33,945 nt of DNA from a bacterium (lineage in GTDB: Bacteria > Electryoneota > Electryoneia > Electryoneales > Electryoneaceae), in the NCBI GenBank assembly GCA_043801585.1, contig JAZDLX010000114.1, positions 1-33,945 of the forward strand, in the 5' to 3' direction. Shown piece by piece: positions 516 to 24,750 of this stretch (the stretch's first letter is position 1; each line of letters opens with the position of its first letter). Below the pieces are notes generated by a model that was not told the origin of the DNA, did not search any database, and saw only the letters and a program-made list of their open reading frames with translations. The position numbers were made by a program, and so were the translations under genes.

Positions 516-568
516 GACTGCAAAAACGAGGACCGTTCGCAGTGCCAGAACGGTCCTGAAGCGACGTG

Positions 569-597
569 AATATAGGTTTTTGTCGTGAAACGTGCAA
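569..597 (-). promoter_or_regulatory. sigma70-like promoter of tRNA-Thr
   Basis: TTGCAC-N17-TATATT about 55 nt upstream of the tRNA. Confidence 0.6.
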
Positions 598-7466: not shown

Positions 7467-7615
7467 TTTTGTCTCCCGTCGAAATTCCGGGCATTCAACC
7501 CGTATTCATGGACAATCACCGTAAAAAATCAGAAACAGTCCCTGAATACTGACAGTTGTGCCCTGAAAACACCTTCAGTCACAAAAGTGTCTGAATGAAG
7601 TCACTGATTTCCTCG

Positions 7616-7644
7616 TTGACGCACCCAGCACGATAACGTACCTT
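7616..7644 (+). promoter_or_regulatory. Possible sigma70-like promoter of the acyl-CoA ligase
   Basis: TTGACG-N17-TACCTT. Confidence 0.5.
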
Positions 7645-7684
7645 CATCAGGTCATTGCATGCCACAACCATCCCTGGGGGAATC

Positions 7685-9430
7685 ATGTACCGTTACGAAC
7701 GCTACCTCCGCGCCGATCGAGGGCTGTTTCCATTGTCTGAGCTTGCTTCAAGGAGTGCGCAGGACTTCAGCACCCAACCCGTGATGAGACGCTGGAATGG
7801 CGACGGTTACGATGAAATCACCTACGGCGATTTTGCCAGACAGGTTCAAGCGATCGCCCGCTGGCTGGTTGATAACGGCATCGTCCCGGGAGACCGGATT
7901 TCCCTGCTTGCGGAAAACCGTCCCGAGTGGGGCATGGTGTATCTCGGTGTGCAGGCCGCCGGAGCGATCATTGTCCCGGTGGACAGCATGATGCCACCGA
8001 GTGGGATACGTCATATCATCGCAAACAGTGAATCCCGTTTCCTGTTCTGCAGCGAGAAATTCCACAAGGCGGTAGAAGAACTGGCGCCGATTTCAACGCT
8101 CGAGAAGATCATTTACATGGATGATATCGAGAGCGAAGAATCCCTCTCCTTCTCAGCCGTGCTCGAGAGCGGAAATGCAAGCAATACGTCTCTGCCGAAA
8201 CGTCAGATGGATGAGTTGGCGGCCATCATCTACACATCCGGCACGACAGGCCACAGCAAAGGGGTCATGCTGACTCAGCAAAACCTGATGAGCAACGTGG
8301 CCGCAGCCAGCCGGATCCTTCCATTGGGACCTGAAGACACCTTCCTGTCCGTGTTGCCGATGCACCATACCTACGAGTGCACCACGGGATTTCTGCTTCC
8401 GATCTATTGTGGAAGTTCGATCACCTACGCACGCAGCCTGAAGTCGCAGGAGTTGCTCGACGACATGCGCCGGACAAATGTGACGATTATGGTTGCCGTG
8501 CCGCTGCTCTACGAAAAGATGTACGAGGGAATCACACGCAAACTCTCGAAAGCGCCGTTGGCAACACGGTTGGTGGTCGGAGTGCTATTCGGACTCTCGC
8601 GGTTCTTCGGAATGTTCGGCCTGCGGGCCGGCAAGGTGCTGCTGCGGAGTCTGCGTGAAAAAGCGGGCATGGGCAGTGTGGTCTATTTCGTCAGTGGAGG
8701 TGGCCCGCTGGATCCGCGCATCGCGGATTTCTTCTCCCTGCTGGGACTCAACGCGCTGCAGGGATTTGGTCTGACGGAAACCAGTCCGTTGACTCATGTG
8801 AACCTTCCCGCCCGTCCAGACAGCGTCACCGTCGGCCCACCGATCTCCGGCGTGGAGCAGCGGATCGACAACCCGAACAGCGAAGGGATTGGCGAAATCG
8901 TCCTGCGCGGACCGAACATCTTCAAAGGGTATTACAAGAACGATGAAGCGACAAAGGAGGTGCTCAGCGAGGACGGCTGGTTCCACACGGGCGACCTGGG
9001 GAAGATCCATCCAAACGACTTTTTGCAGATTACAGGCCGGATGAAAAACATGCTGGTGACAGCGGGCGGAAAGAACGTTTACCCCGAAGAGATCGAGCAT
9101 TTTCTCAACCGCAGCCGGTTCATCGCCGAATCTCTGGTGCTCGGCATTCCCCGTCCCACGGGCTATGGCGATGAGGTAGCGGCGCTGATCTACCCCGACT
9201 ACGAACAGCTTGACCTGTATTTCGAGGAGTTGGGATCGAAGCCGAAGGACGAGGACGTCGTCAAGCTGATCAAGGGCGAGATCAAGGAGGCGCAGAAGAA
9301 CCTTCAGGATTACAAACGAATCCACCGATTCCGCCTGATGGAAGAGGAGTTCCAGAAGACATCCACGCGAAAAATCAAACGGTACCTCTACAGCGGGGAC
9401 ATGCTCGGGCTCAACGGTGAGAATGTTTGA
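7685..9430 (+). CDS. fadD: Long-chain fatty acid--CoA ligase (AMP-binding enzyme)
   Basis: IIYTSGTTGHSKG, GFGLTET, WFHTGDLG, GRMKNMLVTAGGKNVYPEEIE; start ATG 7685 after GGGGGAA RBS. Confidence 0.9.
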   Translation: MYRYERYLRADRGLFPLSELASRSAQDFSTQPVMRRWNGDGYDEITYGDFARQVQAIARWLVDNGIVPGDRISLLAENRPEWGMVYLGVQAAGAIIVPVDSMMPPSGIRHIIANSESRFLFCSEKFHKAVEELAPISTLEKIIYMDDIESEESLSFSAVLESGNASNTSLPKRQMDELAAIIYTSGTTGHSKGVMLTQQNLMSNVAAASRILPLGPEDTFLSVLPMHHTYECTTGFLLPIYCGSSITYARSLKSQELLDDMRRTNVTIMVAVPLLYEKMYEGITRKLSKAPLATRLVVGVLFGLSRFFGMFGLRAGKVLLRSLREKAGMGSVVYFVSGGGPLDPRIADFFSLLGLNALQGFGLTETSPLTHVNLPARPDSVTVGPPISGVEQRIDNPNSEGIGEIVLRGPNIFKGYYKNDEATKEVLSEDGWFHTGDLGKIHPNDFLQITGRMKNMLVTAGGKNVYPEEIEHFLNRSRFIAESLVLGIPRPTGYGDEVAALIYPDYEQLDLYFEELGSKPKDEDVVKLIKGEIKEAQKNLQDYKRIHRFRLMEEEFQKTSTRKIKRYLYSGDMLGLNGENV

Positions 9431-9455
9431 TCAGGTGATCATTAAGATCGTTCCC

Positions 9456-9489
9456 GCGCGCATGAGAAATTTCATGCGCGCTTTCTTTT
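9456..9489 (+). terminator. Rho-independent terminator of the acyl-CoA ligase gene
   Basis: GCGCGCATGA-N6-TCATGCGCGC followed by TTTCTTTT. Confidence 0.85.
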
Positions 9490-9522
9490 GAGGTGCGATA
9501 TTCTTCGGAACCGATGCACCCT

Positions 9523-9556
9523 AAAAAAGCGCCACGACTGTACGAGCCGTGGCGCT
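9523..9556 (-). terminator. Minus-strand terminator with no recognisable protein gene immediately upstream
   Basis: AGCGCCACGGCT-CGTAC-AGTCGTGGCGCT-TTTTT; the 12-bp stem has a G-U pair that only works on the minus strand. Confidence 0.8.
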
Positions 9557-9898
9557 CACGTCGGCGACCGAACCACCCGAATGAGATCTGCGGCTCCACA
9601 CCCGGGTTCCTCCTCGAGCTCGTTCACCGGCGTCAGCATGGTCAGACCGTTCCATTGCTGACGACATTGCAACCCATCCAACAACGAGATCCTCCGTTAT
9701 CGTCATGGCCTGCTTAGACATCTGTCTCGCCCCTGGAGCGTAGCCGGAGCCTCCAAGGGCGACAGCCGCACTGATGCGAGTTGTGTTGGTTCCCTGTCAA
9801 CAGATACCTCGCATCGTGCAGAAAACCGGAGTTTACAAGAGCATAAAAGCCGGCATCCCCCACCTCCCACATCTATCGGGATTCGAGGATTCCGGCTC
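9523..9898 (-). ncRNA. Candidate structured ncRNA, unit B
   Basis: Promoter-like TTGCAT-N18-TATTTT (9935-9906); stems 9848-9897, 9768-9819, 9727-9762, 9631-9663; terminator 9523-9556. Confidence 0.45.
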
Positions 9899-10011
9899 TG
9901 TTTGTAAAATATCCAGCAAAGAACTGAATATGCAACAGAATTGTCGTGCCCAACACAGGAAAGCGGGGCACCTGAGCTCTATAACCTGCACAAGCGATGA
10001 AATCACCGAGA

Positions 10012-10398
10012 ACAGAGCAATTATTGAACAGCGCTCTGTCACCGACCGGACAGAAGCGCATCGGACGCGGAAGCCGGAGCCAGCGTATCCGCACCACCTC
10101 CTGTGTGTGGGCTTCGGTCGGTCAGGAGGATGATGATATGCATTTTGTGAACTTCTTCGTCCGACAGCAACGCATCGCGCGTGCGGACGAGATCACGTTT
10201 GAATCAATAACGGCAAAACCTTGGCTATTCAGAGCTGCATGTTTGAAGAAGTGAAAGACTGATAAAAGATGCAGCAGGAAAATCCATACGATTGCGCGGG
10301 GCAAGCCTCCTTTGATCCTCAAGACATGCCAGCCCCTCCACCCTATAAAAAAAGCCGGTTCTCCGTTCGCCCATTCTGGGCGGTGGAGAATCCGGCTC
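10012..10398 (-). ncRNA. Candidate structured ncRNA, unit A (3' end uncertain)
   Basis: Promoter-like TTGACA-N18-TACTTT (10433-10404); stems 10353-10397, 10234-10275, 10157-10190, 10041-10122, 10012-10039. Confidence 0.35.
10347..10397 (-). terminator. Hairpin plus U-tract: terminator of the HD-GYP gene and/or 5' stem of unit A
   Basis: AGCCGGATTCTCC...GGAGAACCGGCT-TTTTTT on the minus strand. Confidence 0.6.
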
Positions 10399-10479
10399 GA
10401 AAAAAAGTATGGGAAATTCCTGACTTTTGTCAAGCTGTAACTGTTTCACAGGAAATAAACACAAACATCATCCATCTGC

Positions 10480-11661
10480 TCAGAGATCGTAGAGGAAATC
10501 CAGTTTGAGACGGAAGTCATCAGCGAAATCGACTTCGACTGGTACTCCCAGCCTTTCATGGAACTGATCATACAGCAGGGTCACCATCGGACGGTTGAGG
10601 TTCTCCCGATTGACCTTGCTGACAACACCTCGATAACCAACATACTTGTAATATGTAGAGGATTCGAGAATTTCTACGTTCGATCCTTCCGGCAGGGTGT
10701 TGATCACGGACATCGCCATCTGGGTGATGTGCTCGTTGAACCAGCTTGGGGTATTTTTAACAATTTCCTGCACCGCTTCGATTGGCGTGAACAGTGTGCG
10801 CTCAATTTTTCCGGAGACAAGATTGTCAAAGTAATCGGCAGCAGCAATGATCTCCGCGAATCGATGAATCGTCCCGCGGTTTTCGCGGTTGACCTTGGGC
10901 GGTTCACCTGAACCTTTCATGCCCGCCGGGAATCCACTTTCATCCTGCCTTTCATGATGCTGCAGAACGGCCATCGTAATGTGGATGTTGGTGGTTGGAT
11001 CCCGTTCAAGCAGGACGGCTCCCATCTGAGGGTGCATCTTGTAAAGATCTCGCTGCTCTTCGGTGCGATCCAGCGGATGAACCGATGCCAGGTCTGGATC
11101 AAGCCGCAATTTGCCAAGGTCGTGATAGAACGCAGCCTTGGCGAGCAGGATCATTTCCGCACGGGCGAAAGTGAATCCCAGTCCGATCAGAAGGGACAAA
11201 ATGGCCACGTTTGTCGAGTGATTGATCAGCTGGTTTTCCGCGAGATGAACACCGGGAAAATAGACAGGCCTCCGAACGCGGGTGACATCGTTAACCATCA
11301 TCTCGATCGCACGATTGACCAGTTGCTTGGTCTCGAGATCCATCCCGGGCTCTCGCTCCGAGGATGTACCCGTACGCCTGTAGCGTTCCCGAGCAACTTC
11401 ATCGGTGTCAAAGAGTGCGATTTGATTCATTGCCTGCGCAGCAATCTTGCGGGCTTCAATCCCGATCAGGTCCTCAACCTGAATCGACTCCGTTCCGCTC
11501 TCGAGGATGTAGACATAATAGAAGCCCATTTCACGGATCCGCTGAACGGACAGTGGGTCGATCATTGTTCCTTCGGCGAGTAACTTCCGATAGTTCTGAT
11601 CATAAATCGGACGACCAAGCAACATGCCGGTTTTCAAGTTCTTCACGCCGATCTGTCGCAT
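10480..11661 (-). CDS. HD-GYP domain protein (cyclic-dinucleotide phosphodiesterase-like)
   Basis: HSTNVA, HDLGK, HPQMG, HHERQDESGFPAG, IIAAADYFD; N-terminal LKTGMLLGRPIY..LL..G; ATG 11661 after GGGAGG. Confidence 0.88.
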   Translation of the reverse strand: MRQIGVKNLKTGMLLGRPIYDQNYRKLLAEGTMIDPLSVQRIREMGFYYVYILESGTESIQVEDLIGIEARKIAAQAMNQIALFDTDEVARERYRRTGTSSEREPGMDLETKQLVNRAIEMMVNDVTRVRRPVYFPGVHLAENQLINHSTNVAILSLLIGLGFTFARAEMILLAKAAFYHDLGKLRLDPDLASVHPLDRTEEQRDLYKMHPQMGAVLLERDPTTNIHITMAVLQHHERQDESGFPAGMKGSGEPPKVNRENRGTIHRFAEIIAAADYFDNLVSGKIERTLFTPIEAVQEIVKNTPSWFNEHITQMAMSVINTLPEGSNVEILESSTYYKYVGYRGVVSKVNRENLNRPMVTLLYDQFHERLGVPVEVDFADDFRLKLDFLYDL

Positions 11662-14747: not shown

Positions 14748-17700
14748 TCATTTGATCAGCACCACCGGTTTCAACTCCTCCTTGCGGCCTTCAGGATCCT
14801 CCGCGATCACCCGGACGACGTACCGTCCATTCCGCGCTTGCCGGCCATCTTCGGTCAATCCGTTCCAGATGATCGAACCAACGCCCCCCAATCTGCTGTA
14901 CACCCCTTTTTCCACCGAAACCCGATCGATCAGGGTACGCACATGCTGTCCCACCATATTGTAAATCTCAATCGTCAGCCAGACGTTCGGAAAGAGGCTC
15001 TGCAATTCGAATTCAACCGAGAGCGGGTAATCACCCTCGGGACTGAATGGATTGGGAGTAAAGATGAGGTTATCAATCGCCAGCGGTTTTGCACCCGCGA
15101 TCACAGCGTAAAGCCCCTCCACTCCTTGTGACGGTGTGGGTACGATGGGAGCCGTGATGGACTCACCGTCCGACGACACAGTGCTGCCGTCCAGCTCGAT
15201 CCATTTCAGGTTGTCAATATCCCATCGGGCGAGTGAAGGATTGCGTTGCGGGGCGCCAGCAGGCAGCAGAAGAGTCAACTCATAGGCCACCCTCTCCTCG
15301 TTCAACGATCCCTGAAGCAGGATTCTGTGTCCGACCTCCTGCAGCGCTTCGATACCCTGCTGGAACCGCTGAAGCTGAACAAGCTTGGGGGTTCTCAAAC
15401 GCAGGCTTCCCTGATTCCCGGCTATCGCTTCAGCCGAGAACCAACCGGTCAGCCGGGTGCCGTCAATGCCCTCCGCGACAAAGGAATCACCCGGCGCCGA
15501 GGTAACGGGCACATACAGCGTCAACCCCTCGCTGGCGGCGCCGTTCTGATCGTTGAAGATACCCAAGATGGAGGTGAGCGGATCGGTGGCCGAAATGCGA
15601 ACCGTTCCGAATTTTCCACTGTCTGACTGGAAAACCGCATTTTGGGTAAACGGCGTGGGAGCAAAGTTCGACTGGTAGAGGGAATCCACGGTCCACTCGG
15701 GAGCCACCTGCATCAACGTGCCACCCGTGTCCGTGGCGACAACGGTGAAGACGATGGAGTCCCCGGCTGCAATCTCGATCGAGGGTGCGCTGACCTGGAG
15801 CGTGCCGAGCGTGCGCATAACGTTGTTCAAGGGCAACATGGACGATGCCGTCAGCGTCGACGATCCGGTCTCTTGCGTGACCAGCACCCTGACAGTGTCC
15901 AGCCCCTCGCCCGTGGAGAGGTAGATCGCGCTGTCCGCCCGCAATCCGCTGGTGTCCACCTCGAACATCGAACTGGACCAGGTAACACTCCCGGAGTCGA
16001 TAACGGATTCGGTCAACAGGCTGTCGAGTTCGTCAAATGCGCTGACCGTGAGCAGAAGCGGGACTCCCGGTTGCACTTCCTCCACGGAGGGCGACAGCAC
16101 GACCCGGCTGAGACGCCCGATACTGCTGACTGTCAGGGTTGACGCGCCCCCCGGACCGCCGATGACCAGACCGCTGTCCGTGGTCAGTTCCGGGTAGAAG
16201 GTGATCGTTCCCGACCCGCTTTGTGGCGGGATCATCCCTTGATAGGTCACATTCGCCGCGATACTCGTGCCGCCCCGAACGGAGTGAGAAGGAATTGTTA
16301 TTGATTTCCGTACTGAACGATCCACATGACGGAAAAGAGTCGGCGCGGATACCGATGATGATCCGGACGACGTGCTCGTGACTTCCACCATCGGAACTGT
16401 CCGCGAAAAGCCCTCTCCCACGGCCGTGTAGTAAAGCAGGGCCGAAACGATCGTATAGGAGTCGGGCACCTGGATCTGAACCGTAATGCTGTCCCCGACA
16501 TTCCCCACAGAGGGAGGCGTGTACGGCAATCCGAGTGGAATCACCACGCCAATCGAGTCACCGTTCACAATGGATCTGCTCAATGGAGCGACTGGCAGCA
16601 ACCCGGTGACCGGTGTCACCTCGATGAGATAATCGCCATCGGAGAGATACGGATCGGTGATCGCAACGCCATCCACGTCCGTAACCAGGACAACTGAGAA
16701 CAGGCCGTCCGTGGAAGCGACGGAGACAACGTTCCCTGCGACCGGATTCCCCGATTCATCCACGATCGTAACACCGATCTGGCCACTCGCATAGACAAGG
16801 TTGACGGTCGCCGTTTCACCATCGGACAACAGGAATCCGGCGGATTCGACGGTGCCGAGGGAATCGTGTGTGGCGGAAATCCGGTAGGTATAGGGCGCGG
16901 ATACGGATTGTGCGAAGCCTCCCATACTATCCGTGGACGTCGTGTAGGCGTGGGTTCCATCGAGGGCTGACATCACGATGGTGGCACCTTGGACGGGAGT
17001 GGTTCGATGGACGAGCGATCCCTGAATGGTACCTGATCCCTGCCCCGGAACGAGGACAAAATCAAGATCCGGGTGGCCTTCTCCTGATGTGTGCAGAAAC
17101 GTCCTGTTGGATGGAGATGTCGCGCTGGATGGTTGAACTGTGAAACCGCCATCCGACGTCAAAGTGAATGAAAAATGTCCAGCGGAATCTGTGGTGTCGG
17201 TTTCCAACGTATTTCCAGCGTCATTTTTCCATCTGATGATGATATCCGGAGCGGGATCGTTTCCATCGAAACCGAAGATTGTCCCCGTGGCCAGATCCGC
17301 AACGGCATCGAGAGTCAGGTTAGCGGCAGCCACCTCACCGGAAGTCAGGTCGATGCTAACGCTTGCAGTCTGATAGCCGTATTTATCCGCAGAGACTGCC
17401 CAGGAGCCACTTGCGATATTGGTGAAACCGAAATCGCCCGATCCTCCTGTCACCGTTGAAAGTGTCTGAGAACCGACAGCTGTCACAACGGCGTTCGGGA
17501 GCCCGCCACCTTCAACGTTGGTGACCCTCCCGGTAATGGACGTTGACTCCGCCGTAAAGGTCCAATCGAGGTTCAGGATTTCACCAGCGGGCAGTTCAAC
17601 CTCCTGAGAATCAGGAATGACATAGCCATCCGCAGAGGCATGGACCGTTAATATTCCCGGGCGCAAACCGCGAAGACGGTAAGTGCCGTCGGAGGTGCCA

Positions 17701-20700
17701 TAGATAAAGGAAAACGTTCCCGTAGTCAGGTTTTCAGTCTCATACAGAACCCTGCTTGACAATGCGGTCCCTGAGGAAGTTGAAGCGGTTCCCGTTAGTT
17801 CGCCGGTGGTGCGTAGCGTGAGATCGCGCATGACAAAGCTGCCAGCGGGCACCGCAAAACCGTGCTGGTAGCTGGTTGCGCTCCCATCCGAATTCGTTCC
17901 AAGCAGCACAAGAGAACCGGATGGAGCCAGCAATCCGTAGCGACCATACGCATCAGTAACTGTCGAATGTATCTCTCCGCTGCGCGCCCTCAGTTCGACT
18001 TCCGCCCCAGAAAGCGGTTCACCGTTTTTATCCGTGAATACTCCAAACACGCCGTTTGTAAGCGGAGTCAGACGTATTGAATTCAACGATGAACCCGGAG
18101 CGACTCCCGTTATGACTCGTGCCTGAAAACCGGGAGGTGAGACGGAGATTGTGTACACACTATCCGGATCAAGGCCGGTAAATGTTAGAAAGCCCAACCC
18201 GTCACTCACGAGAGAAGTGTCCCGGATATCGTTCCCTGAAATACTGACGACGATGCCTCTCTGAGGGATGTTTGTGTCTTCTGGTTTGAGGTATATGAGG
18301 TACGTGATCTGGTCAACAGCTGAGACAAGTGTGATGTTCAACGTATCACGAACTTGGCCGTCTTCGAAGAAAACGGTGTCCCGAACCGCTCGGTATCCCT
18401 GTTTAGAGAAGACAAGCGTGTGAGTACCTTTGCCAAGATTGCGCAGTGAATAGAGACTATTTTTATAGACAGGTGAGCTGTTATCGAGAGTGATCGAGGC
18501 ACTATTTATAGCTGCCCCCCCCTCATCAAGAATCGTTCCGGAGATCACCCCCTCTTTGATCGTGACGGTGAGATCCGCCGAAGTGATATTCGTGTCTGTC
18601 GCACTTACGCTGCGGGTTTCTGAGATTCTTGTCGCCACACCGGTATTTACCGTCAGCGAATAGTCCGTGAATCCGGGCAGGGCTGAAAACGTGAAGGTTC
18701 CCAATGAATCGGTTGTAGCTTGTTGTGTGGAGGACGAAGCAATGAGAACAACGGTAGCGCCGATCAAGGGGTTTCCGGCATCGTCATGAACCTTGCCGCC
18801 GATATTGACCGTGGTCACCAGCGGTGTGAAATCGATTGCCGTTCTGGCCTCGCCAACAGCGAGAGATGAAATCGTGCGGCTTGCCGGTGAGTATTGCGTA
18901 CCGGGCTTGGCAGGGGCGACCACCCACGTTCCACTGTTGATGTTTTCGAATCGATACGCCCCGGCCACATCGCTGTAGGCGACACGGGTACCGCCGTTTG
19001 ATCGCGCCGCAGTTAACGTTACGCCCGATTCGCCTGTCGTTCCTCGAATCGAGGCCGTTCGCTGGATCAGGGTCAGTGCAACTCCCGTTACATTCGACGT
19101 GCCGGTAGTAACCGTGACATCCGCTTCTTCCGTTGTCCCCGCTCCCAGCGCTGTCGTGATCCGGCAGTTGCTGTTTGTCGCGACCCCAGTGATCGTCCAG
19201 ACTCCAGCCGCACTCGAAGTCGTTGTCAGCACGCTGCCGTCAGAGAGACTCGTCACACGAACCGGGACGTTCCCCAACGCAGTGGGAGTCTGGTTTGCGG
19301 TTGTTCCGCTGATGGTCAGGGCGTTGCGGGGCATGGTGACGTTGTAGGTGTTCCCGGCGTGGGCGGCAGCAACCGTATTTATCTGGTATCCCGAAAGGGT
19401 GAACGTCAAATCGTAAGCGTCAGGAAGATTCAGTCCGTTGATTGTGTACACCCCTCCTGGAGACGAGATGCTCTCAACGCTGTACCCCGTTCCGGAAACT
19501 GCTCTCACTTGAACCCCGGTCAATCCGGCGCCTGCCTGATCCTTGATGGTTCCAGTGAGCGAACCCGTGTTGGCAGTCGCCGTCAGATTCACCGTCAGTG
19601 TTGCGTTGGGTGCAACCGTCTGCCCGGTAAGCGGGGTCGCCGTATAACCGGACTTCAGCGCTTCCACACGGTAAGTGCCTGCGGAAATCGTGGGAATCGT
19701 ATACGTACCGTTGGATCCGCTGAGTGTCGAATAGGTTGCACCCGTGGAAAGCGTAGCGCGAACGGTGGCGTTAGAAACCGGGCTGCCGGAAGATGTAACG
19801 CTGCCTGTGATTGAACTCGTTTGCGCGACGAGCCGCAACGCCGAGCCTGAGATGACCTGTCCGTCCACAACCAGCCCAACGGTCAGCGTGTCGGGTGTAA
19901 ATCCAGTCTTGCGCCCGTATAACGTATAGCGTCCGCCGGTCACTTTTAAGAACTGAAAGAATCCCCCGGCGTCCGATGTGGTCTGCCGTACCGTGCCGTC
20001 GGACCGTTTCAATTCCACTGTCGCGCCCGAGAGCACTGCATTCGAAGCGTTCTTCACAGATCCTGAGACGGTGGCATAGTTGGCTGTCAAGCTGTAATTG
20101 ACGTTTGAGAGGTTTTGGCCGCCGCTGACAGTTACCGAGCTTGTTGCAGTCAGGTGCGTGGCCGCTGAAATGTCCATCGTCCAAGTTCCCGGCAACACAC
20201 TCAACGAATAGGTTCCGGAGGGTCCGGTGGTCGTTGAAACCGCCGAAGCGCCTGAACTGGCGACAACGGTTGCGTTCTCAAGGGGTGAGCCATCGCTGGA
20301 TGAAACTTTTCCAGAAATGGACGCTCCGAGCAGCGACATCGTGAGGGAAACCTGTTGCTGTCCCCCGGCTGTCAGCACGCCTGTTGTCGCCGACGCACTG
20401 CTGAAACTGGTTTTCGTGGCGATCACCGTGTACGCTTTGCCGCTCTCCACGGAAATGGAAAACGCACCCGTCACACTGGATGATGTTGTGATGCCTCCCG
20501 TGGTGGTTCCGGACGGCCGGATGGTAACTGTGACACCGTAGAGAGGTCCGGCGGAACTGGAGATAAGACCGCTGACGGTGCCGGTATTCGGCTGCAGTGC
20601 AAAATTTCGCCCGGTGGTCACCGATCCGGGTTGCATAGTCAACGTCAGGCTGGTCGGATTCAACACTGAAAATCCGGATTTTCTCGCTGTGATTGTGCAG

Positions 20701-23246
20701 GTTCCGGGGATCAGTCCCAGCGTATAGGAACCGCCGGATCCTGTCGTCACCTGGACGGAGGTTCCCCCCGTCGAGGGAGTCGCGGTGACCGTGGCACCGA
20801 TGATCCCCGTGCCTCCATAGGCGACAACGCCACTGACCGTTGCCACATTGGGCGCCAGGGTAGCGACGACACCAGTCTGCGCCTCCCCCCAGTTCACTGT
20901 CCAGGGTCCACTGGATTCCGTGGAGTACCCCGTCCGTGAAATCGTCAGAGTGTGCGTTCCGGCGGGAACGCTGAGTGTGAAAGCGCCCGAATTGTTCGAC
21001 GTTGTCGCCGCCCCACCGCCTGTCACGGTAGCCTGGGAAACAGGAGAACCGCTGGGCGTTCGGACAGTCCCGGAGATCGAGGAGGGGTTGGGTGCAAGGT
21101 TCAGGGTCACGCCGTTGGAGGTCTCACCTGGACCAAGGGTCAAGGTCACGGGTTGAGCTGTATACCCGCTGAGCACCCCTTTCAACACCCAGGTTCCCGG
21201 AGGCAAGCCGAGGTTGAAACTCCCGTTATCGGCCGTCGTTGTGGTGACGATTTCACCAGCCGAGGGCACCGCCTGAACGGTAACTCCGCCACGGTTCATC
21301 ACCGTTCCACCTTCCGCGATAAACCCGGAAATAATCGCCGCCTGCGGATTCAAGGTGATGTTCTTCGTTACGTTTGCACCGTTCACGACCACACTGATCG
21401 GTCCACTCGGCAGGTAGTACCCCGCCTTGATCGCAGACAGCGTCCAGGTTCCGTTGCCAACGGTGAAACTGTATCTCCCACTCTCTCCCGTGAACGTGGA
21501 TGCCTGTTCGATGCCTTTTTGAATAACCACCTGGCCAAGGGGAATCGGCTGACTGTTTGTGTTCAGGACAGTCCCGTTGACCGTAAACGTGTAGGGAATA
21601 AGCAGCAGGGGTCCGCCGTTGTTGTTCAGATCGAGTGTCTGGCCGCTGGTGACCGTAACCGTGCGTGTGGAACTCGGTTGGTAGGAAGGTGCGGAAGCCT
21701 TGAATGTCCAGGTTCCCACGTTGAGCCCGACGGTGAATTCGCCGGAAGTGTTCGTGGTTGCCGTCAGTTGCACGCCAAGCGCACTGGTCGCCCGAACGGT
21801 TGCATTGCCTATTGGTGAACCGCTGTTCGATGTCACCTTGCCGACGACGGTGCTTGGACGCGGCTGCATCGTGATGGCGATGGAACGCACGACATCCTTG
21901 ACGACGCTGACAGTGGCCGAGGTAGCATCCAGGTAGCCCTGTTTGTGGGCGTGGAGGATGTAGCTGCCGACCGGAGCCAAGAAATGGTAAGAACCGTTAT
22001 CATCCGTGGCAATCGATTGAATATTCGGACCCTGAACTGCCTCGAAATCAACCTGGGCAAGGTCAATCGGGTTGTCAGTCGCATCTTTTGTGGTTATCCG
22101 AAGTTCACCGGACTCGATCACATAGGTGAACGACGAGCTGTCGGAGATCGTTCCGGAACCGAGGCCATCCGACGCAATCACTTTCCAGTTGTATTGCCCA
22201 CCCTGCAGCAGGGAGGCCGCTGGAAGGATCACCGCGTTGTCCGTTGTCTGTGCGCGCCAGACCGGGAAGAGGATTTCGGTTCCATTGGAGTACAATTGGA
22301 ACCTGGACAGGTAAACGAAGTAGCTGCTTGCCTGCGACACGATACTCCACTGGAACCGTATTTCAGGATCGAAGAGTGCTGCGCCACGCTGTGGAGACTG
22401 CAGGACAGGCAACGTGAACGGAGGAGTCGTCTGGACCTCAAATCCGCTCACCTGTCCGACAACGGAGGAGGTATACTCGACAGAATTACCATAGCAATTG
22501 AGCACGGTCCAGTTGTACCGGGGACGGGTGCCTGAACTGTTGGATCCGACCAGTGGGGGAACCATTTCGTTCGCAATGGTGCCCGAAGGATCGGGGACGC
22601 CATACTGGATGGACGTGTTTGGCGTGATCGCCTGCCAGACAACATTGGCGCCCTCGACCCGGGTTCCCTGATCGTCCTTGATGATGGTAAACGGCTGATC
22701 CGCGACGAACACCAGGTAATAGGGAACGCCAGTCACTCCCTGCCAGGTGATTGTCGGAGATGTCGTACTGATGCCTGATCCACCTGCGGGGGTGATCGGG
22801 CTCTGCGGAACCGCGGCGGACGCTGCAGCGCGCAACACCCGGAAGAAGGTGGAGATGTCCGTGCCGCTGCTACTCGATCGGATGAAACAGGTCAGCGGCC
22901 CCACCGGTAATCGAGAGGCGAGCACACGGATCCGCCCCGGCTGCGACAGCAATGGATTGGACAACGAATTGTATGCGTTGAGGTTCGATCCCGGTGAACC
23001 CGGCGCGTAGTTGAAGATACCCGTGACCGCAGGAGTCCAGGTAATCTCCAGGGTGTCCGCGGATTCCGTGATGTTCAGGGGCACAGAATTCAGAACAAGA
23101 GCGGCGCTGGTGTTTTCCGTGGACGTCAGCGTGCGGAGGTTGATCAGGGGTGGCCCGGCGTTCGCGGATGCCACAATGCCTCCCGCCGCGATTACAAGAG
23201 CCGCTGCGATCCCGATCAACCGTCCTGCAGATCGTCTAAAATTCAT
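14748..23246 (-). CDS. Giant (~2830 aa) surface protein with ~22 carboxypeptidase-regulatory-like/Cna-B-type beta-sandwich repeats and a T9SS-like (FlgD-Ig) C-terminal sorting domain
   Basis: Signal peptide MNFRRSAGRLIGIAAALVIAAGGIVASANA; repeats ISGxV...GxP...ATV....G.Y....PG.W...A.K.GY; C-terminus PNPFSPEGD...IEIYNMVGQHVRTL...IWNGL..G....G.YVV...VVLIK. Confidence 0.88.
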   Translation of the reverse strand: MNFRRSAGRLIGIAAALVIAAGGIVASANAGPPLINLRTLTSTENTSAALVLNSVPLNITESADTLEITWTPAVTGIFNYAPGSPGSNLNAYNSLSNPLLSQPGRIRVLASRLPVGPLTCFIRSSSSGTDISTFFRVLRAAASAAVPQSPITPAGGSGISTTSPTITWQGVTGVPYYLVFVADQPFTIIKDDQGTRVEGANVVWQAITPNTSIQYGVPDPSGTIANEMVPPLVGSNSSGTRPRYNWTVLNCYGNSVEYTSSVVGQVSGFEVQTTPPFTLPVLQSPQRGAALFDPEIRFQWSIVSQASSYFVYLSRFQLYSNGTEILFPVWRAQTTDNAVILPAASLLQGGQYNWKVIASDGLGSGTISDSSSFTYVIESGELRITTKDATDNPIDLAQVDFEAVQGPNIQSIATDDNGSYHFLAPVGSYILHAHKQGYLDATSATVSVVKDVVRSIAITMQPRPSTVVGKVTSNSGSPIGNATVRATSALGVQLTATTNTSGEFTVGLNVGTWTFKASAPSYQPSSTRTVTVTSGQTLDLNNNGGPLLLIPYTFTVNGTVLNTNSQPIPLGQVVIQKGIEQASTFTGESGRYSFTVGNGTWTLSAIKAGYYLPSGPISVVVNGANVTKNITLNPQAAIISGFIAEGGTVMNRGGVTVQAVPSAGEIVTTTTADNGSFNLGLPPGTWVLKGVLSGYTAQPVTLTLGPGETSNGVTLNLAPNPSSISGTVRTPSGSPVSQATVTGGGAATTSNNSGAFTLSVPAGTHTLTISRTGYSTESSGPWTVNWGEAQTGVVATLAPNVATVSGVVAYGGTGIIGATVTATPSTGGTSVQVTTGSGGSYTLGLIPGTCTITARKSGFSVLNPTSLTLTMQPGSVTTGRNFALQPNTGTVSGLISSSAGPLYGVTVTIRPSGTTTGGITTSSSVTGAFSISVESGKAYTVIATKTSFSSASATTGVLTAGGQQQVSLTMSLLGASISGKVSSSDGSPLENATVVASSGASAVSTTTGPSGTYSLSVLPGTWTMDISAATHLTATSSVTVSGGQNLSNVNYSLTANYATVSGSVKNASNAVLSGATVELKRSDGTVRQTTSDAGGFFQFLKVTGGRYTLYGRKTGFTPDTLTVGLVVDGQVISGSALRLVAQTSSITGSVTSSGSPVSNATVRATLSTGATYSTLSGSNGTYTIPTISAGTYRVEALKSGYTATPLTGQTVAPNATLTVNLTATANTGSLTGTIKDQAGAGLTGVQVRAVSGTGYSVESISSPGGVYTINGLNLPDAYDLTFTLSGYQINTVAAAHAGNTYNVTMPRNALTISGTTANQTPTALGNVPVRVTSLSDGSVLTTTSSAAGVWTITGVATNSNCRITTALGAGTTEEADVTVTTGTSNVTGVALTLIQRTASIRGTTGESGVTLTAARSNGGTRVAYSDVAGAYRFENINSGTWVVAPAKPGTQYSPASRTISSLAVGEARTAIDFTPLVTTVNIGGKVHDDAGNPLIGATVVLIASSSTQQATTDSLGTFTFSALPGFTDYSLTVNTGVATRISETRSVSATDTNITSADLTVTIKEGVISGTILDEGGAAINSASITLDNSSPVYKNSLYSLRNLGKGTHTLVFSKQGYRAVRDTVFFEDGQVRDTLNITLVSAVDQITYLIYLKPEDTNIPQRGIVVSISGNDIRDTSLVSDGLGFLTFTGLDPDSVYTISVSPPGFQARVITGVAPGSSLNSIRLTPLTNGVFGVFTDKNGEPLSGAEVELRARSGEIHSTVTDAYGRYGLLAPSGSLVLLGTNSDGSATSYQHGFAVPAGSFVMRDLTLRTTGELTGTASTSSGTALSSRVLYETENLTTGTFSFIYGTSDGTYRLRGLRPGILTVHASADGYVIPDSQEVELPAGEILNLDWTFTAESTSITGRVTNVEGGGLPNAVVTAVGSQTLSTVTGGSGDFGFTNIASGSWAVSADKYGYQTASVSIDLTSGEVAAANLTLDAVADLATGTIFGFDGNDPAPDIIIRWKNDAGNTLETDTTDSAGHFSFTLTSDGGFTVQPSSATSPSNRTFLHTSGEGHPDLDFVLVPGQGSGTIQGSLVHRTTPVQGATIVMSALDGTHAYTTSTDSMGGFAQSVSAPYTYRISATHDSLGTVESAGFLLSDGETATVNLVYASGQIGVTIVDESGNPVAGNVVSVASTDGLFSVVLVTDVDGVAITDPYLSDGDYLIEVTPVTGLLPVAPLSRSIVNGDSIGVVIPLGLPYTPPSVGNVGDSITVQIQVPDSYTIVSALLYYTAVGEGFSRTVPMVEVTSTSSGSSSVSAPTLFRHVDRSVRKSITIPSHSVRGGTSIAANVTYQGMIPPQSGSGTITFYPELTTDSGLVIGGPGGASTLTVSSIGRLSRVVLSPSVEEVQPGVPLLLTVSAFDELDSLLTESVIDSGSVTWSSSMFEVDTSGLRADSAIYLSTGEGLDTVRVLVTQETGSSTLTASSMLPLNNVMRTLGTLQVSAPSIEIAAGDSIVFTVVATDTGGTLMQVAPEWTVDSLYQSNFAPTPFTQNAVFQSDSGKFGTVRISATDPLTSILGIFNDQNGAASEGLTLYVPVTSAPGDSFVAEGIDGTRLTGWFSAEAIAGNQGSLRLRTPKLVQLQRFQQGIEALQEVGHRILLQGSLNEERVAYELTLLLPAGAPQRNPSLARWDIDNLKWIELDGSTVSSDGESITAPIVPTPSQGVEGLYAVIAGAKPLAIDNLIFTPNPFSPEGDYPLSVEFELQSLFPNVWLTIEIYNMVGQHVRTLIDRVSVEKGVYSRLGGVGSIIWNGLTEDGRQARNGRYVVRVIAEDPEGRKEELKPVVLIK

Positions 23247-24750
23247 AGCTGATGCCCATCCGCAAAACGTCCTCCGGCAACCCCGCAATCATGATCTCAT
23301 AGCGCAGGTTTCTGCTGACATGAAAGGAAAATCCAAGATCGAGACGTGGAATGATCACCATGTTCCCACCGGGGATCGGGTTCCCGCTTCCGTCCACGTA
23401 ACCGTCGACATAATCCTTGCCGAGCATCGCGCCGACACCGAAGAAAAAAGGACCGGGTGCGATACCGAAATATCCACCGTATTGAAGCACAATCCCACGT
23501 CCGTAGAGGTGGGTTGAGTAGCTGGAATCCTGAACGCTTTTCTCCTGCACCACAACGTCGTAGCCGAATTTTCCATTGAGGTAGTAGATTCCGGACAGGC
23601 TTGGGCGCAAACCACCGCCCGCCGCGATGGTGACGGTTGCGGCATCGGGGACGTGCAGTGTCAACCGGTCGCTGAGCAGGTAGGTGTTCGGGTAGGTGCG
23701 GGTGATCTCCGTGACGTCTGAAATCCGGTTCACATCGAAGGGGTCCTCATCCGCGCCGGCACTCAATTTCAGCGCGGGGAATTCGTCCACGACCATTGTC
23801 ATGCTTCCATGCAATTCAGGTGGCTGCTGGCGAACAATCTCCGCACCCAACCGCCAGGATTTTTCGGATTGTCCGGCGATGGTGAAACCTGCGCGCACCG
23901 TCCACCAGGAGCCGGAATATCCACCGACTGCAAGCGAATGGAGTGCATTGTACCAGGGATCGGCGTCGTTGTTGAACGCCCATTGCTGTCCCCCGCGCGT
24001 CATGATGCCATCGATGTTGTATCCGGCATTGAGATCGATCGCAACCAGGGTTCGGGTCGCGCTTGCACCGAGGGTCAACCAGCGGAAGACATCACGCGAG
24101 AACGCCACGACGAGCCGGTCGGCGTCGATTTCGAGGAGATCGTTGATCCGAGTCTGGATCGCGAAGGCGACCGCGTCGGCAGGATTGGACTCCACCGTGT
24201 CGATGCGCTGGCGAAATCCCGCGTGGAGCAGGTCCATCTTCAGGTGAATCGGACGATCGTATCCAAACCCGATCCGCCACCCGCCGAAGGGCACCGCGAC
24301 AGCGAATGCGTTGAGGCTGCTCGCGGACCGCGCAACTGTTCCATCAAACACTGGATAGGAGAAATCATCCGTGCTCTGAAATCCCTCGATGTAGCCGTCT
24401 ACAGCGTCATTAATGCCCTGTTGAATGTCGAAAGGAATACTCGAAAAACGGATACCTACTTCCGGGTGAAGGGTGATACCGATGATCACATCGTGTCGAA
24501 CAAAACGCAGTCCAGCGGGATTTCGGAATACAGCGTAGGGATCCGCCTGAACCGGAGCTGCCGCACCCACGGCGACGCTGGTGACACCCGGACCCCCGGC
24601 AAGCATGCTGTTCAATTCGAAATTCAGATTCATCCTGCCACCGTCGAAATAGGTCAGGATAGGATCTGTCGATTGTTGTGCTCTCGCTCCCTGCTGCGTG
24701 GACAATAACCCCAGAGCAAGCAACGCAAACCACCTCGTCCAAACCCTCAT
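23236..24750 (-). CDS. Outer-membrane beta-barrel protein, FadL/OmpP1/PorV-like
   Basis: Signal peptide; DPYAVFRNPAGL plug-like motif; amphipathic beta-strands; C-terminal GISYEF; overlaps the start of the giant gene. Confidence 0.7.
   Translation of the reverse strand: MRVWTRWFALLALGLLSTQQGARAQQSTDPILTYFDGGRMNLNFELNSMLAGGPGVTSVAVGAAAPVQADPYAVFRNPAGLRFVRHDVIIGITLHPEVGIRFSSIPFDIQQGINDAVDGYIEGFQSTDDFSYPVFDGTVARSASSLNAFAVAVPFGGWRIGFGYDRPIHLKMDLLHAGFRQRIDTVESNPADAVAFAIQTRINDLLEIDADRLVVAFSRDVFRWLTLGASATRTLVAIDLNAGYNIDGIMTRGGQQWAFNNDADPWYNALHSLAVGGYSGSWWTVRAGFTIAGQSEKSWRLGAEIVRQQPPELHGSMTMVVDEFPALKLSAGADEDPFDVNRISDVTEITRTYPNTYLLSDRLTLHVPDAATVTIAAGGGLRPSLSGIYYLNGKFGYDVVVQEKSVQDSSYSTHLYGRGIVLQYGGYFGIAPGPFFFGVGAMLGKDYVDGYVDGSGNPIPGGNMVIIPRLDLGFSFHVSRNLRYEIMIAGLPEDVLRMGISYEF

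Follow-up and report, generated by a model that had tools for sequence, protein, structure and literature searches.

A conserved intergenic locus with two promoter-hairpin modules predicted to drive tandem structured RNAs in an uncultured genus of Electryoneaceae

The DNA analysed here is a 33,945-nucleotide (nt) stretch from a bacterium of the family Electryoneaceae (GenBank assembly GCA_043801585.1, contig JAZDLX010000114.1), and this whole stretch is referred to as the window. Between two convergent genes of the window lies an intergenic gap of 1049 nt (9431-10479). This gap holds a conserved non-coding locus of the minus strand, in which two modules, each consisting of a promoter-like site and a hairpin, probably give rise to two structured RNAs in tandem (RNA A and RNA B, from units A and B). 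The reading is built on a comparison with a second species of the same uncultured genus (G001), the sole relative with the locus; the window's own assembly (G000) comprises 3.28 Mb in 225 contigs and is 92% complete. We regard the locus as a new orphan RNA and not as a new kind of system, and we infer its transcripts, their read-through and their function alike.

Promoter-like sites and their hairpins

An initial annotation of this DNA had reported two minus-strand promoter-like elements with identical 18-nt spacers (N18), and direct reading confirmed both. The first, P_A, is TTGACA-N18-TACTTT at 10433-10404, with TTGACA at 10433-10428 and TACTTT at 10409-10404. The second, P_B, is TTGCAT-N18-TATTTT at 9935-9906, with TTGCAT at 9935-9930 and TATTTT at 9911-9906. 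Both fit a promoter pattern derived from the organism's own tRNA genes, TTG(A/C)nn-N17/18-TAnnTT at most 150 nt upstream, which is present at 19 of 41 tRNA genes (N17 in 18 of them, N18 in one). Across the genome the pattern occurs 250 times with N17, 89 times with N18 and 55-67 times with spacers of 15, 16, 19 or 20 nt, N17 being about 4-fold commoner than the off-spacings. The density of the N18 form is 0.0136 per kb per strand, which corresponds to about 0.014 expected matches per strand in the gap. When both strands of the gap were scanned with spacers of 16-19 nt, exactly two matches were found, both on the minus strand and both N18.

The 6-kb locus of the second species likewise contains exactly two matches, at homologous places. 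These sites, TTGACA-N18-TACCTT and TTGCGC-N18-TACATT, lie 8 and 7 nt ahead of the motif AGCCGGA, and the sequence surrounding them is otherwise unalignable with the window. In the window, AGCCGGA begins 6 nt past the -10 box of P_A (at 10397) and 8 nt past that of P_B (at 9897), and all four sites therefore combine an 18-nt spacer with a position 6-8 nt before AGCCGGA. This homologous placement in both species is the strongest argument that both elements would be real promoters, and their common 18-nt spacer suggests that they may be weak or regulated. Five of the 339 pattern matches in the genome are directly followed by a hairpin and a T-run, and two of the five are P_A and P_B.

The organism's housekeeping promoter can be read from its tRNA genes as TTGAC/TTGCn, a 17-nt spacer and TAnnTT, and both tRNA genes of the window carry the pattern (e.g., 1759-1787 and 568-596, minus strand). 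On another contig of the same assembly (C157, ~16982-17110, plus strand), TTGCGC-N17-TAACTT stands 10 nt ahead of a -31.5 kcal hairpin with UUUUU, after which come GGGAGAAG, which resembles a ribosome-binding site, and the ATG of a 180-codon frame. This element, another of the five, has the look of an attenuator placed close to the promoter of a protein gene.

Each element had also been described as leading into a hairpin of ~45-50 nt that opens with AGCCGGA and closes with CCGGCU and a run of Us, and this description held, with hairpins of 47-52 nt and the openings at 10397 and 9897. Hairpin A (10347-10398, minus strand) has a stem from G10398 to U10352 and a 7-U run to 10347; its folding free energy (dG) is -31.4 kcal/mol, with a z-score of -6.96. 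Hairpin B (9845-9898, minus strand) has a stem from G9898 to U9847 and a 4-U run to 9845 (dG -28.7, z -4.21). The strong terminator noted at the end of unit B (9523-9557, minus strand) was found as well, as an intrinsic terminator with a 13-bp stem (9557-9527) and six Us (9528-9523); its dG is -23.1 and its z-score -4.80, and it is kept in the second species with a dG of -24.1. The z-scores of these three minus-strand hairpins are each based on 200 shuffles.

In the second species, hairpin A retains an invariant 5' arm and an apex stem that is altered yet paired (dG -36.3), while in hairpin B both arms are invariant and the apex is altered yet paired (dG -33.1), so that hairpins A and B range from -28.7 to -36.3 kcal/mol across both species. 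All three structures, in both species, show the GC-rich hairpin and U-run of an intrinsic terminator, with dG values from -23 to -36; the U-runs number 7, 4 and 6 in the window and read UUUUUCUUU, UUUU and UUUU in the second species. The spacing of 500 nt between the starts of the two hairpins, to which attention had been drawn, is exact in the window but is not a conserved feature, as it is 437 nt in the second species.

The 13-nt hairpin arm AGCCGGAWTCYYC has three occurrences in the 3.28 Mb of the assembly, namely both hairpins and one site within a long open reading frame (ORF). Because the hairpin form AGCCGG...CCGGCUUU is found in the genome solely at this locus, the hairpins are neither a genome-wide repeat nor a stock terminator. 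Complementarity between AGCCGGA and the UCCGGCU tips was considered and was not built on, as most of it follows from the palindromic nature of CCGG and from the stability of UCCG tetraloop tips. A separate repeated element, seen in a motif scan only, has one copy on contig C11 (~7717, minus strand) and a nearly identical one on C118 (~16462, plus strand); it extends over at least 120 nt and closes with a CCCGGC-UUUUU-CCGGGCGG hairpin.

Hairpin A starts 82 nt beyond the stop codon, at 10480, of the gene for an HD-domain protein that precedes the locus (the HD gene), and it is the sole terminator candidate available to that gene; hairpin B is the sole one for transcription through unit A. Since each hairpin is the only available terminator and yet stands at the predicted +1 of the next promoter, a double role is the simplest reading. 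Hairpin A would likely end HD-gene transcripts as an intrinsic terminator and also open RNA A, as its 5' stem-loop or an early terminator; hairpin B would likely serve the end of RNA A and the beginning of RNA B in these same two ways.

Conservation and structure of the two units

Unit B (9898-9525) is 74.8% identical to the second species over 377 columns, with indels of 1-2 nt, and one block of unit A, the A3 block (10136-10031), is 82.4% identical over 108 nt. The HD gene is 77% identical between the window and the second species, with 51% of its third codon positions differing, and blastn aligned none of the locus's other intergenic stretches across the two species. Because third positions of the HD gene are half diverged and the other intergenic DNA is unmatched, an identity of 75-82% shows selection on a non-protein feature. 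Mismatches are distributed over codon positions 1, 2 and 3 as 31, 42 and 32 in unit B, compared to 40, 28 and 200 in the HD gene. The lack of codon periodicity and of Pfam matches for the ORFs of the gap bears out the earlier statement that no convincing protein gene lies there. These ORFs are short and rich in Arg, Cys and Trp; no ORF here or in the second species matched Pfam, and the reading frames differ between both species. The GC content of the gap (0.53-0.54) is that of coding DNA, while other gaps of the window fall to 0.36-0.45.

A chain of three to four long stems had been proposed for each unit. The proposal stands for unit B and applies to unit A only in part. On the minus strand, unit B contains four helices. 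Helix P1 (9766-9821) has a conserved 9-nt apical loop, ACARGGAAC, and its 18 pairs carry four one-sided changes between the species, none of which breaks a pair; it is the basis of covariance model R1. Helix P2 (9722-9765) has the tip GGCUCCGGCU, a C(UCCG)G tetraloop, and 17 pairs with three one-sided changes and one two-sided change. It is followed by a variable segment (9664-9721) of low identity to the second species (alignment columns 186-243). Helix P3 (9631-9663) has the conserved loop AANNGUCUGA and 11 pairs with one one-sided change, and it contains a run of 21 nt that is invariant in the second species. Helix P4 (9562-9629) has the conserved internal loop GAGGAGGA; its 23 pairs show eight one-sided changes and one two-sided change, and none is broken.

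RNAalifold gave 105 consensus pairs for unit B, and all 210 cells of these pairs in the two species are standard pairs. Twenty-one pairs have changed on one side, always through G-U, and five on both sides; in a control in which the partners were slid by 1-3 columns, 36-47% were paired. In a cross-test, the structure was predicted from one species and the pairs broken by the other were counted, with the same substitutions placed randomly as the null. On the minus strand 30 and 29 pairs were broken, against 39.6 +/- 3.7 and 40.6 +/- 3.8 under the null, a result matched by 11 and 5 of 2000 randomisations; for the plus strand the corresponding numbers were 58 and 374 of 2000. The U-G pairs of helix P2 fit the minus strand only, which agrees with the strand-specific G-U pairing described before. 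As a whole, the stretch 9520-10400 has a folding energy of -365 kcal/mol for the minus strand and -315 for the plus strand (z -6.70 and -4.48; 20 shuffles each). In piecewise calculations (40 shuffles), z-scores in sense and antisense orientation were -3.9 and -1.7 for the unit B core, -3.5 and -0.2 for the unit A tail (9899-10025), -1.2 and -0.5 for the A3 block, and 0.0 and -1.6 for the 208-nt spacer of unit A. Overall, structure is favoured on the minus strand.

Unit A is organised differently, and most of it shows neither conservation nor unusual folding. Past hairpin A comes the spacer (10137-10346, minus strand), 208 nt that do not align with the second species, where it is about 50 nt long. 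The conserved A3 block (10026-10136, minus strand; 82% identity) forms a three-hairpin domain, the second hairpin of which has the tip GGCUCCGGCU. It has 34 consensus pairs, of which three have changed on both sides and none is broken. A loop-loop pairing between ACCGACC and GGUCGGU within the block, kept in the second species through an A-to-G change as a G-U pair, is a tentative candidate, and a search for further conserved pairings returned many equally good candidates that two sequences do not separate. The tail (9936-10025, minus strand) consists of species-specific hairpins, does not align with the second species and has no canonical terminator.

The initial annotation had taken the two units for paralogous RNAs of 375-400 nt, and the comparison did not support this. 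The bodies are unalignable beyond the hairpin arm, and covariance models R1, R2 and R3 each hit their own site only. Common to both are an N18 promoter, a 13-nt arm that agrees at 10 of 13 positions and an internal hairpin with GGCUCCGGCU at its tip; this 10-mer has five copies in the genome, two of them at this locus (one per unit). The proposed length also does not suit unit A, in which only a block of 110 nt is conserved. Because no terminator lies between this block and hairpin B, unit A would end at about 9845 (~550 nt) or be processed.

Predicted mode of action and competing explanations

Under the reading we favour, RNA synthesis would likely begin 6-8 nt past each -10 box, where a GC-rich hairpin with its trailing Us has its base. 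Transcripts arriving from upstream would end at these hairpins, that of the HD gene at hairpin A and RNA A at hairpin B. Each hairpin would also form the 5' end of the next RNA, where it may act as an early terminator that gates polymerases into the body and, on transcripts that survive, as a cap against decay that depends on the 5' end. The main product would be RNA B, which would span about 376 nt (9898-9523), contain the four conserved helices and end in a strong terminator of its own, while RNA A would contribute a single conserved three-hairpin domain of 110 nt. The conserved loops ACARGGAAC, AANNGUCUGA and GAGGAGGA and the two GGCUCCGGCU tips are most likely where a trans-acting partner, protein or RNA, would dock.

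Several points weigh against this reading. The starts and ends of the RNAs and the read-through between them are all predicted. N18 is a minority class of promoter spacing that exceeds the off-spacings only about 1.4-fold genome-wide, and a lone N18 match is for this reason weak evidence; a scan with the E. coli consensus gave the first promoter only, as TTGACA-16-CATACT, and did not list P_B. An E. coli-type terminator scan listed no minus-strand terminators, as they fail its stem and T-run criteria. A promoter firing into hairpin A with its seven Us should mostly yield an RNA of about 50 nt (10398 to ~10347), and transcription of the A3 block would require read-through from P_A or from the HD gene. 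Folding is also uneven, with a z-score of only -1.6 for the unit B core of the second species, besides the low values already given for the spacer and the A3 block of the window. Finally, the two sequences used to score the consensus structure are also those from which it was derived, and two species are too few for a statistical covariation test.

A more elaborate version, which we consider unlikely, is that the hairpins are matched switchable gates. A dedicated factor would read the invariant arm AGCCGGAWUCYYC at the +1 of two weak N18 promoters and let polymerase pass, so that both RNAs would be switched together as a small RNA-only regulon, and RNA B would be a new folded class held by loop-loop contacts.

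Equally unlikely in our estimate is that the locus has no promoters of its own and that its 950 nt are a structured 3' untranslated region of the HD gene with three leaky terminators, the domains of which act in cis or are processed out. In both species the locus does come immediately after the HD gene and on its strand, hairpin A is canonical and has no rival as terminator candidate past the HD stop codon, and the A3 block has no conserved promoter ahead of it, in addition to the modest enrichment of N18. Such an arrangement leaves the two pattern matches unaccounted for, which stand at homologous places in both species, each 6-8 nt before a hairpin, where about 0.014 are expected. Moreover, read-through of a -31 kcal hairpin with seven Us and then of a second terminator would leave little RNA B.

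It is less likely still that unit B is, or was, a cis-acting leader (an attenuator or riboswitch-like element) of a flavin-reductase operon, from which the insertion of a ligase gene has separated it in the window. The second species lends some weight to this idea, as its flavin-reductase gene starts 240 nt past the unit B terminator on the same strand and the window differs there by about 2 kb containing an AMP-binding gene; the element on contig C157 offers a precedent for a promoter-proximal hairpin with Us ahead of a protein gene. Against it, the strong terminator of unit B is present in both species with no evident alternative pairing, and unit B is still 75% conserved in the window even though an opposite-strand gene separates it from the operon. 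No riboswitch or leader of Rfam matched.

We think it improbable that the conservation acts on the DNA or is merely residual, as in a decaying gene, the scar of a mobile element or protein-binding DNA, with the hairpins as plain terminators between convergent genes. The restriction of the locus to one genus, its absence after the HD orthologue of the nearest other genus, its coding-like GC content and inverted repeats that could be operator-like are all compatible with this explanation. It is weakened by the lack of codon periodicity, of Pfam, plasmid and phage matches and of a second copy in the genome, by an identity far above the neutral level set by the HD gene, where 51% of third positions differ, and by the 21 one-sided changes that all keep their pairs via G-U, which is workable on one RNA strand only.

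That the locus encodes small proteins is very improbable: a frame in unit B (start 9599) does follow a Shine-Dalgarno-like box in both species (GAGGAGGA-N8-GUG, the start codon 8 nt on) and its first 19 codons can be aligned, but 10 of these 19 codons differ with one change synonymous, the frame has 62 codons in the window against 19 in the second species and in the window extends past the terminator, with its stop codon outside the predicted RNA, while a frame after AGGAGG in the A3 block (start 10097) starts only 2 nt after its box and gives products that diverge fully past ~25 residues.

Known families, distribution and setting

The absence of an Rfam match was upheld. A search with Rfam 15 (4227 models) found only two tRNAs in the whole window, and a permissive scan of 9350-10560 gave best E-values of 1-8 and 14-21 bits, compared to gathering thresholds of 37-80 bits. 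The 6S, RNase P and signal recognition particle (SRP) RNAs, normally single-copy genes, had been set aside by the earlier reading, and correctly so, since RF00013, RF00010 and RF00169 score above threshold on other contigs of the assembly (C113, C41 and C55). The same is true of transfer-messenger RNA (tmRNA), including its two-piece form, for which neither ARAGORN nor RF00023 had a match at the locus. The second species has this locus and, on another contig, a normal tmRNA (141.5 bits), and since it carries both, the locus is not a tmRNA. In the window's assembly, ARAGORN found no tmRNA among the 225 contigs, and RF00023 gave only sub-threshold tRNA-like matches. The tmRNA of the second species lies at the very end of a contig (C85:1-355), and the tmRNA gene of the window's assembly probably falls at an assembly break.

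CsrB/RsmZ sponges resemble the locus in that they are stand-alone multi-hairpin RNAs of a few hundred nt with their own terminator, and the apical loop ACARGGAAC resembles a CsrA site. A CsrB/Rsm sponge was nevertheless rejected. GGA occurs 22 times against 17.7 +/- 3.1 in shuffled sequence, a count that 59 of 500 shuffles reached (29 of 500 for the second species), and no match to CsrA (PF02599) was found in the 92% complete assembly, whereas the E. coli, B. subtilis and T. maritima controls responded.

Among described systems, the closest in layout is the tandem small-RNA locus prrF1-prrF2 of Pseudomonas aeruginosa with its read-through RNA PrrH (PMC2851614, PMC7948967). The likeness would lie in adjacent non-coding RNA genes on the same strand, each with a promoter and terminator of its own, and in a first terminator placed shortly ahead of the second gene, from which read-through could give a longer RNA. 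At the locus described here, the promoter motifs and terminators are present and conserved. PrrF1 and PrrF2 are near-identical short base-pairing small RNAs, whereas the bodies of units A and B are unrelated, measure 376 to ~550 nt and agree in nothing but the spacing of the promoter, the 5' arm of the hairpin and the tip of one further hairpin. In contrast to prrF, each promoter here is upstream of the preceding terminator and not after it.

A second comparable layout is that of the late promoter of Shiga-toxin phages, which is described as always active and as having an immediate downstream terminator that gives rise to a short RNA (PMC7547250). As in lambdoid P_R'/t_R' and StxS, where antitermination relieves the stop, a terminator stands at most ~50 nt past the promoter, so that a short hairpin RNA would be made by default and only read-through would yield the long one. 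The locus differs in having no phage context or Q-like gene nearby, in the position of the hairpin at the predicted +1 and in a downstream product that would be a non-coding RNA. Stem-loops at the 5' terminus, such as the hairpin of the ompA 5' untranslated region, stabilise bacterial transcripts. In all four cases here (4/4), a stable hairpin would likewise leave at most 1-2 unpaired nt at the predicted 5' end; stabilisers of the ompA type, unlike these hairpins, are not known to carry a U-run or to act as terminators. If the RNAs are made as predicted, they would bring to light a structured RNA absent from current catalogues, in an uncultured lineage of which little is known, with a compact layout in which one hairpin is the stop of one transcript and the first element of the next. 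Such a layout could show how promoter-proximal terminators set RNA output, although practical value is limited because only two species have the locus, nothing hints at its function and its host is uncultured.

The locus is narrowly distributed. By blastn, a search of 40 relatives matched only the second species. Covariance models R1 and R2 matched 2 of 79 genomes of the phylum, the window's assembly and the second species (stricter filters used), and model R3 matched 2 of 16 genomes of the family, with two further matches at E ~1. An 18-mer allowed at most two mismatches occurred in the 79 phylum genomes at about the frequency of its reversed control, and blastn on the loci found no extended similarity. 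In metagenome contigs the exact 18-mer marked 30 loci, of which only L046 and L052 match the models, with scores equal to those of the second species. An exact 21-mer searched in all species genomes gave the second species and two loci unmatched by R3. Plasmids and phages gave no match, and no second copy was found in the window's assembly. The nearest other genus (G008) has an HD orthologue of 58% identity, but what comes after it is a short gap and then a protein gene, and the RNA locus is missing there. The suggestion of an undescribed class is fair only narrowly: the locus qualifies as an orphan RNA, so far observed in two species of one genus. One DNA run (X1) contributed a single contig of 245 nt with two differences, both in the non-conserved spacer, and comes from the same organism.

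On its outer edge, the RNA locus is bordered by a terminator (9456-9481, plus strand; dG -19.6, z -4.79) that lies outside it and belongs to the gene for an AMP-binding acyl-CoA ligase (7655-9430, plus strand). At the other end the gap is flanked by the HD gene (11667-10480, minus strand), which encodes a protein of the HD-GYP type. In the window, unit B has no same-strand gene downstream, the next gene being convergent. Compared to the locus of the second species (L006, 3499-3736), the window contains about 2 kb of extra DNA at 7467-9524, which consists of the ligase gene and its own terminator, runs in the reverse direction and separates unit B from the flavin-reductase operon. The order of SPOR-domain gene, HD gene and RNA region is common to the window and the second species. 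Upstream in this row of genes, the window contains a very long open frame of 2846 codons (14748-23288, minus strand).

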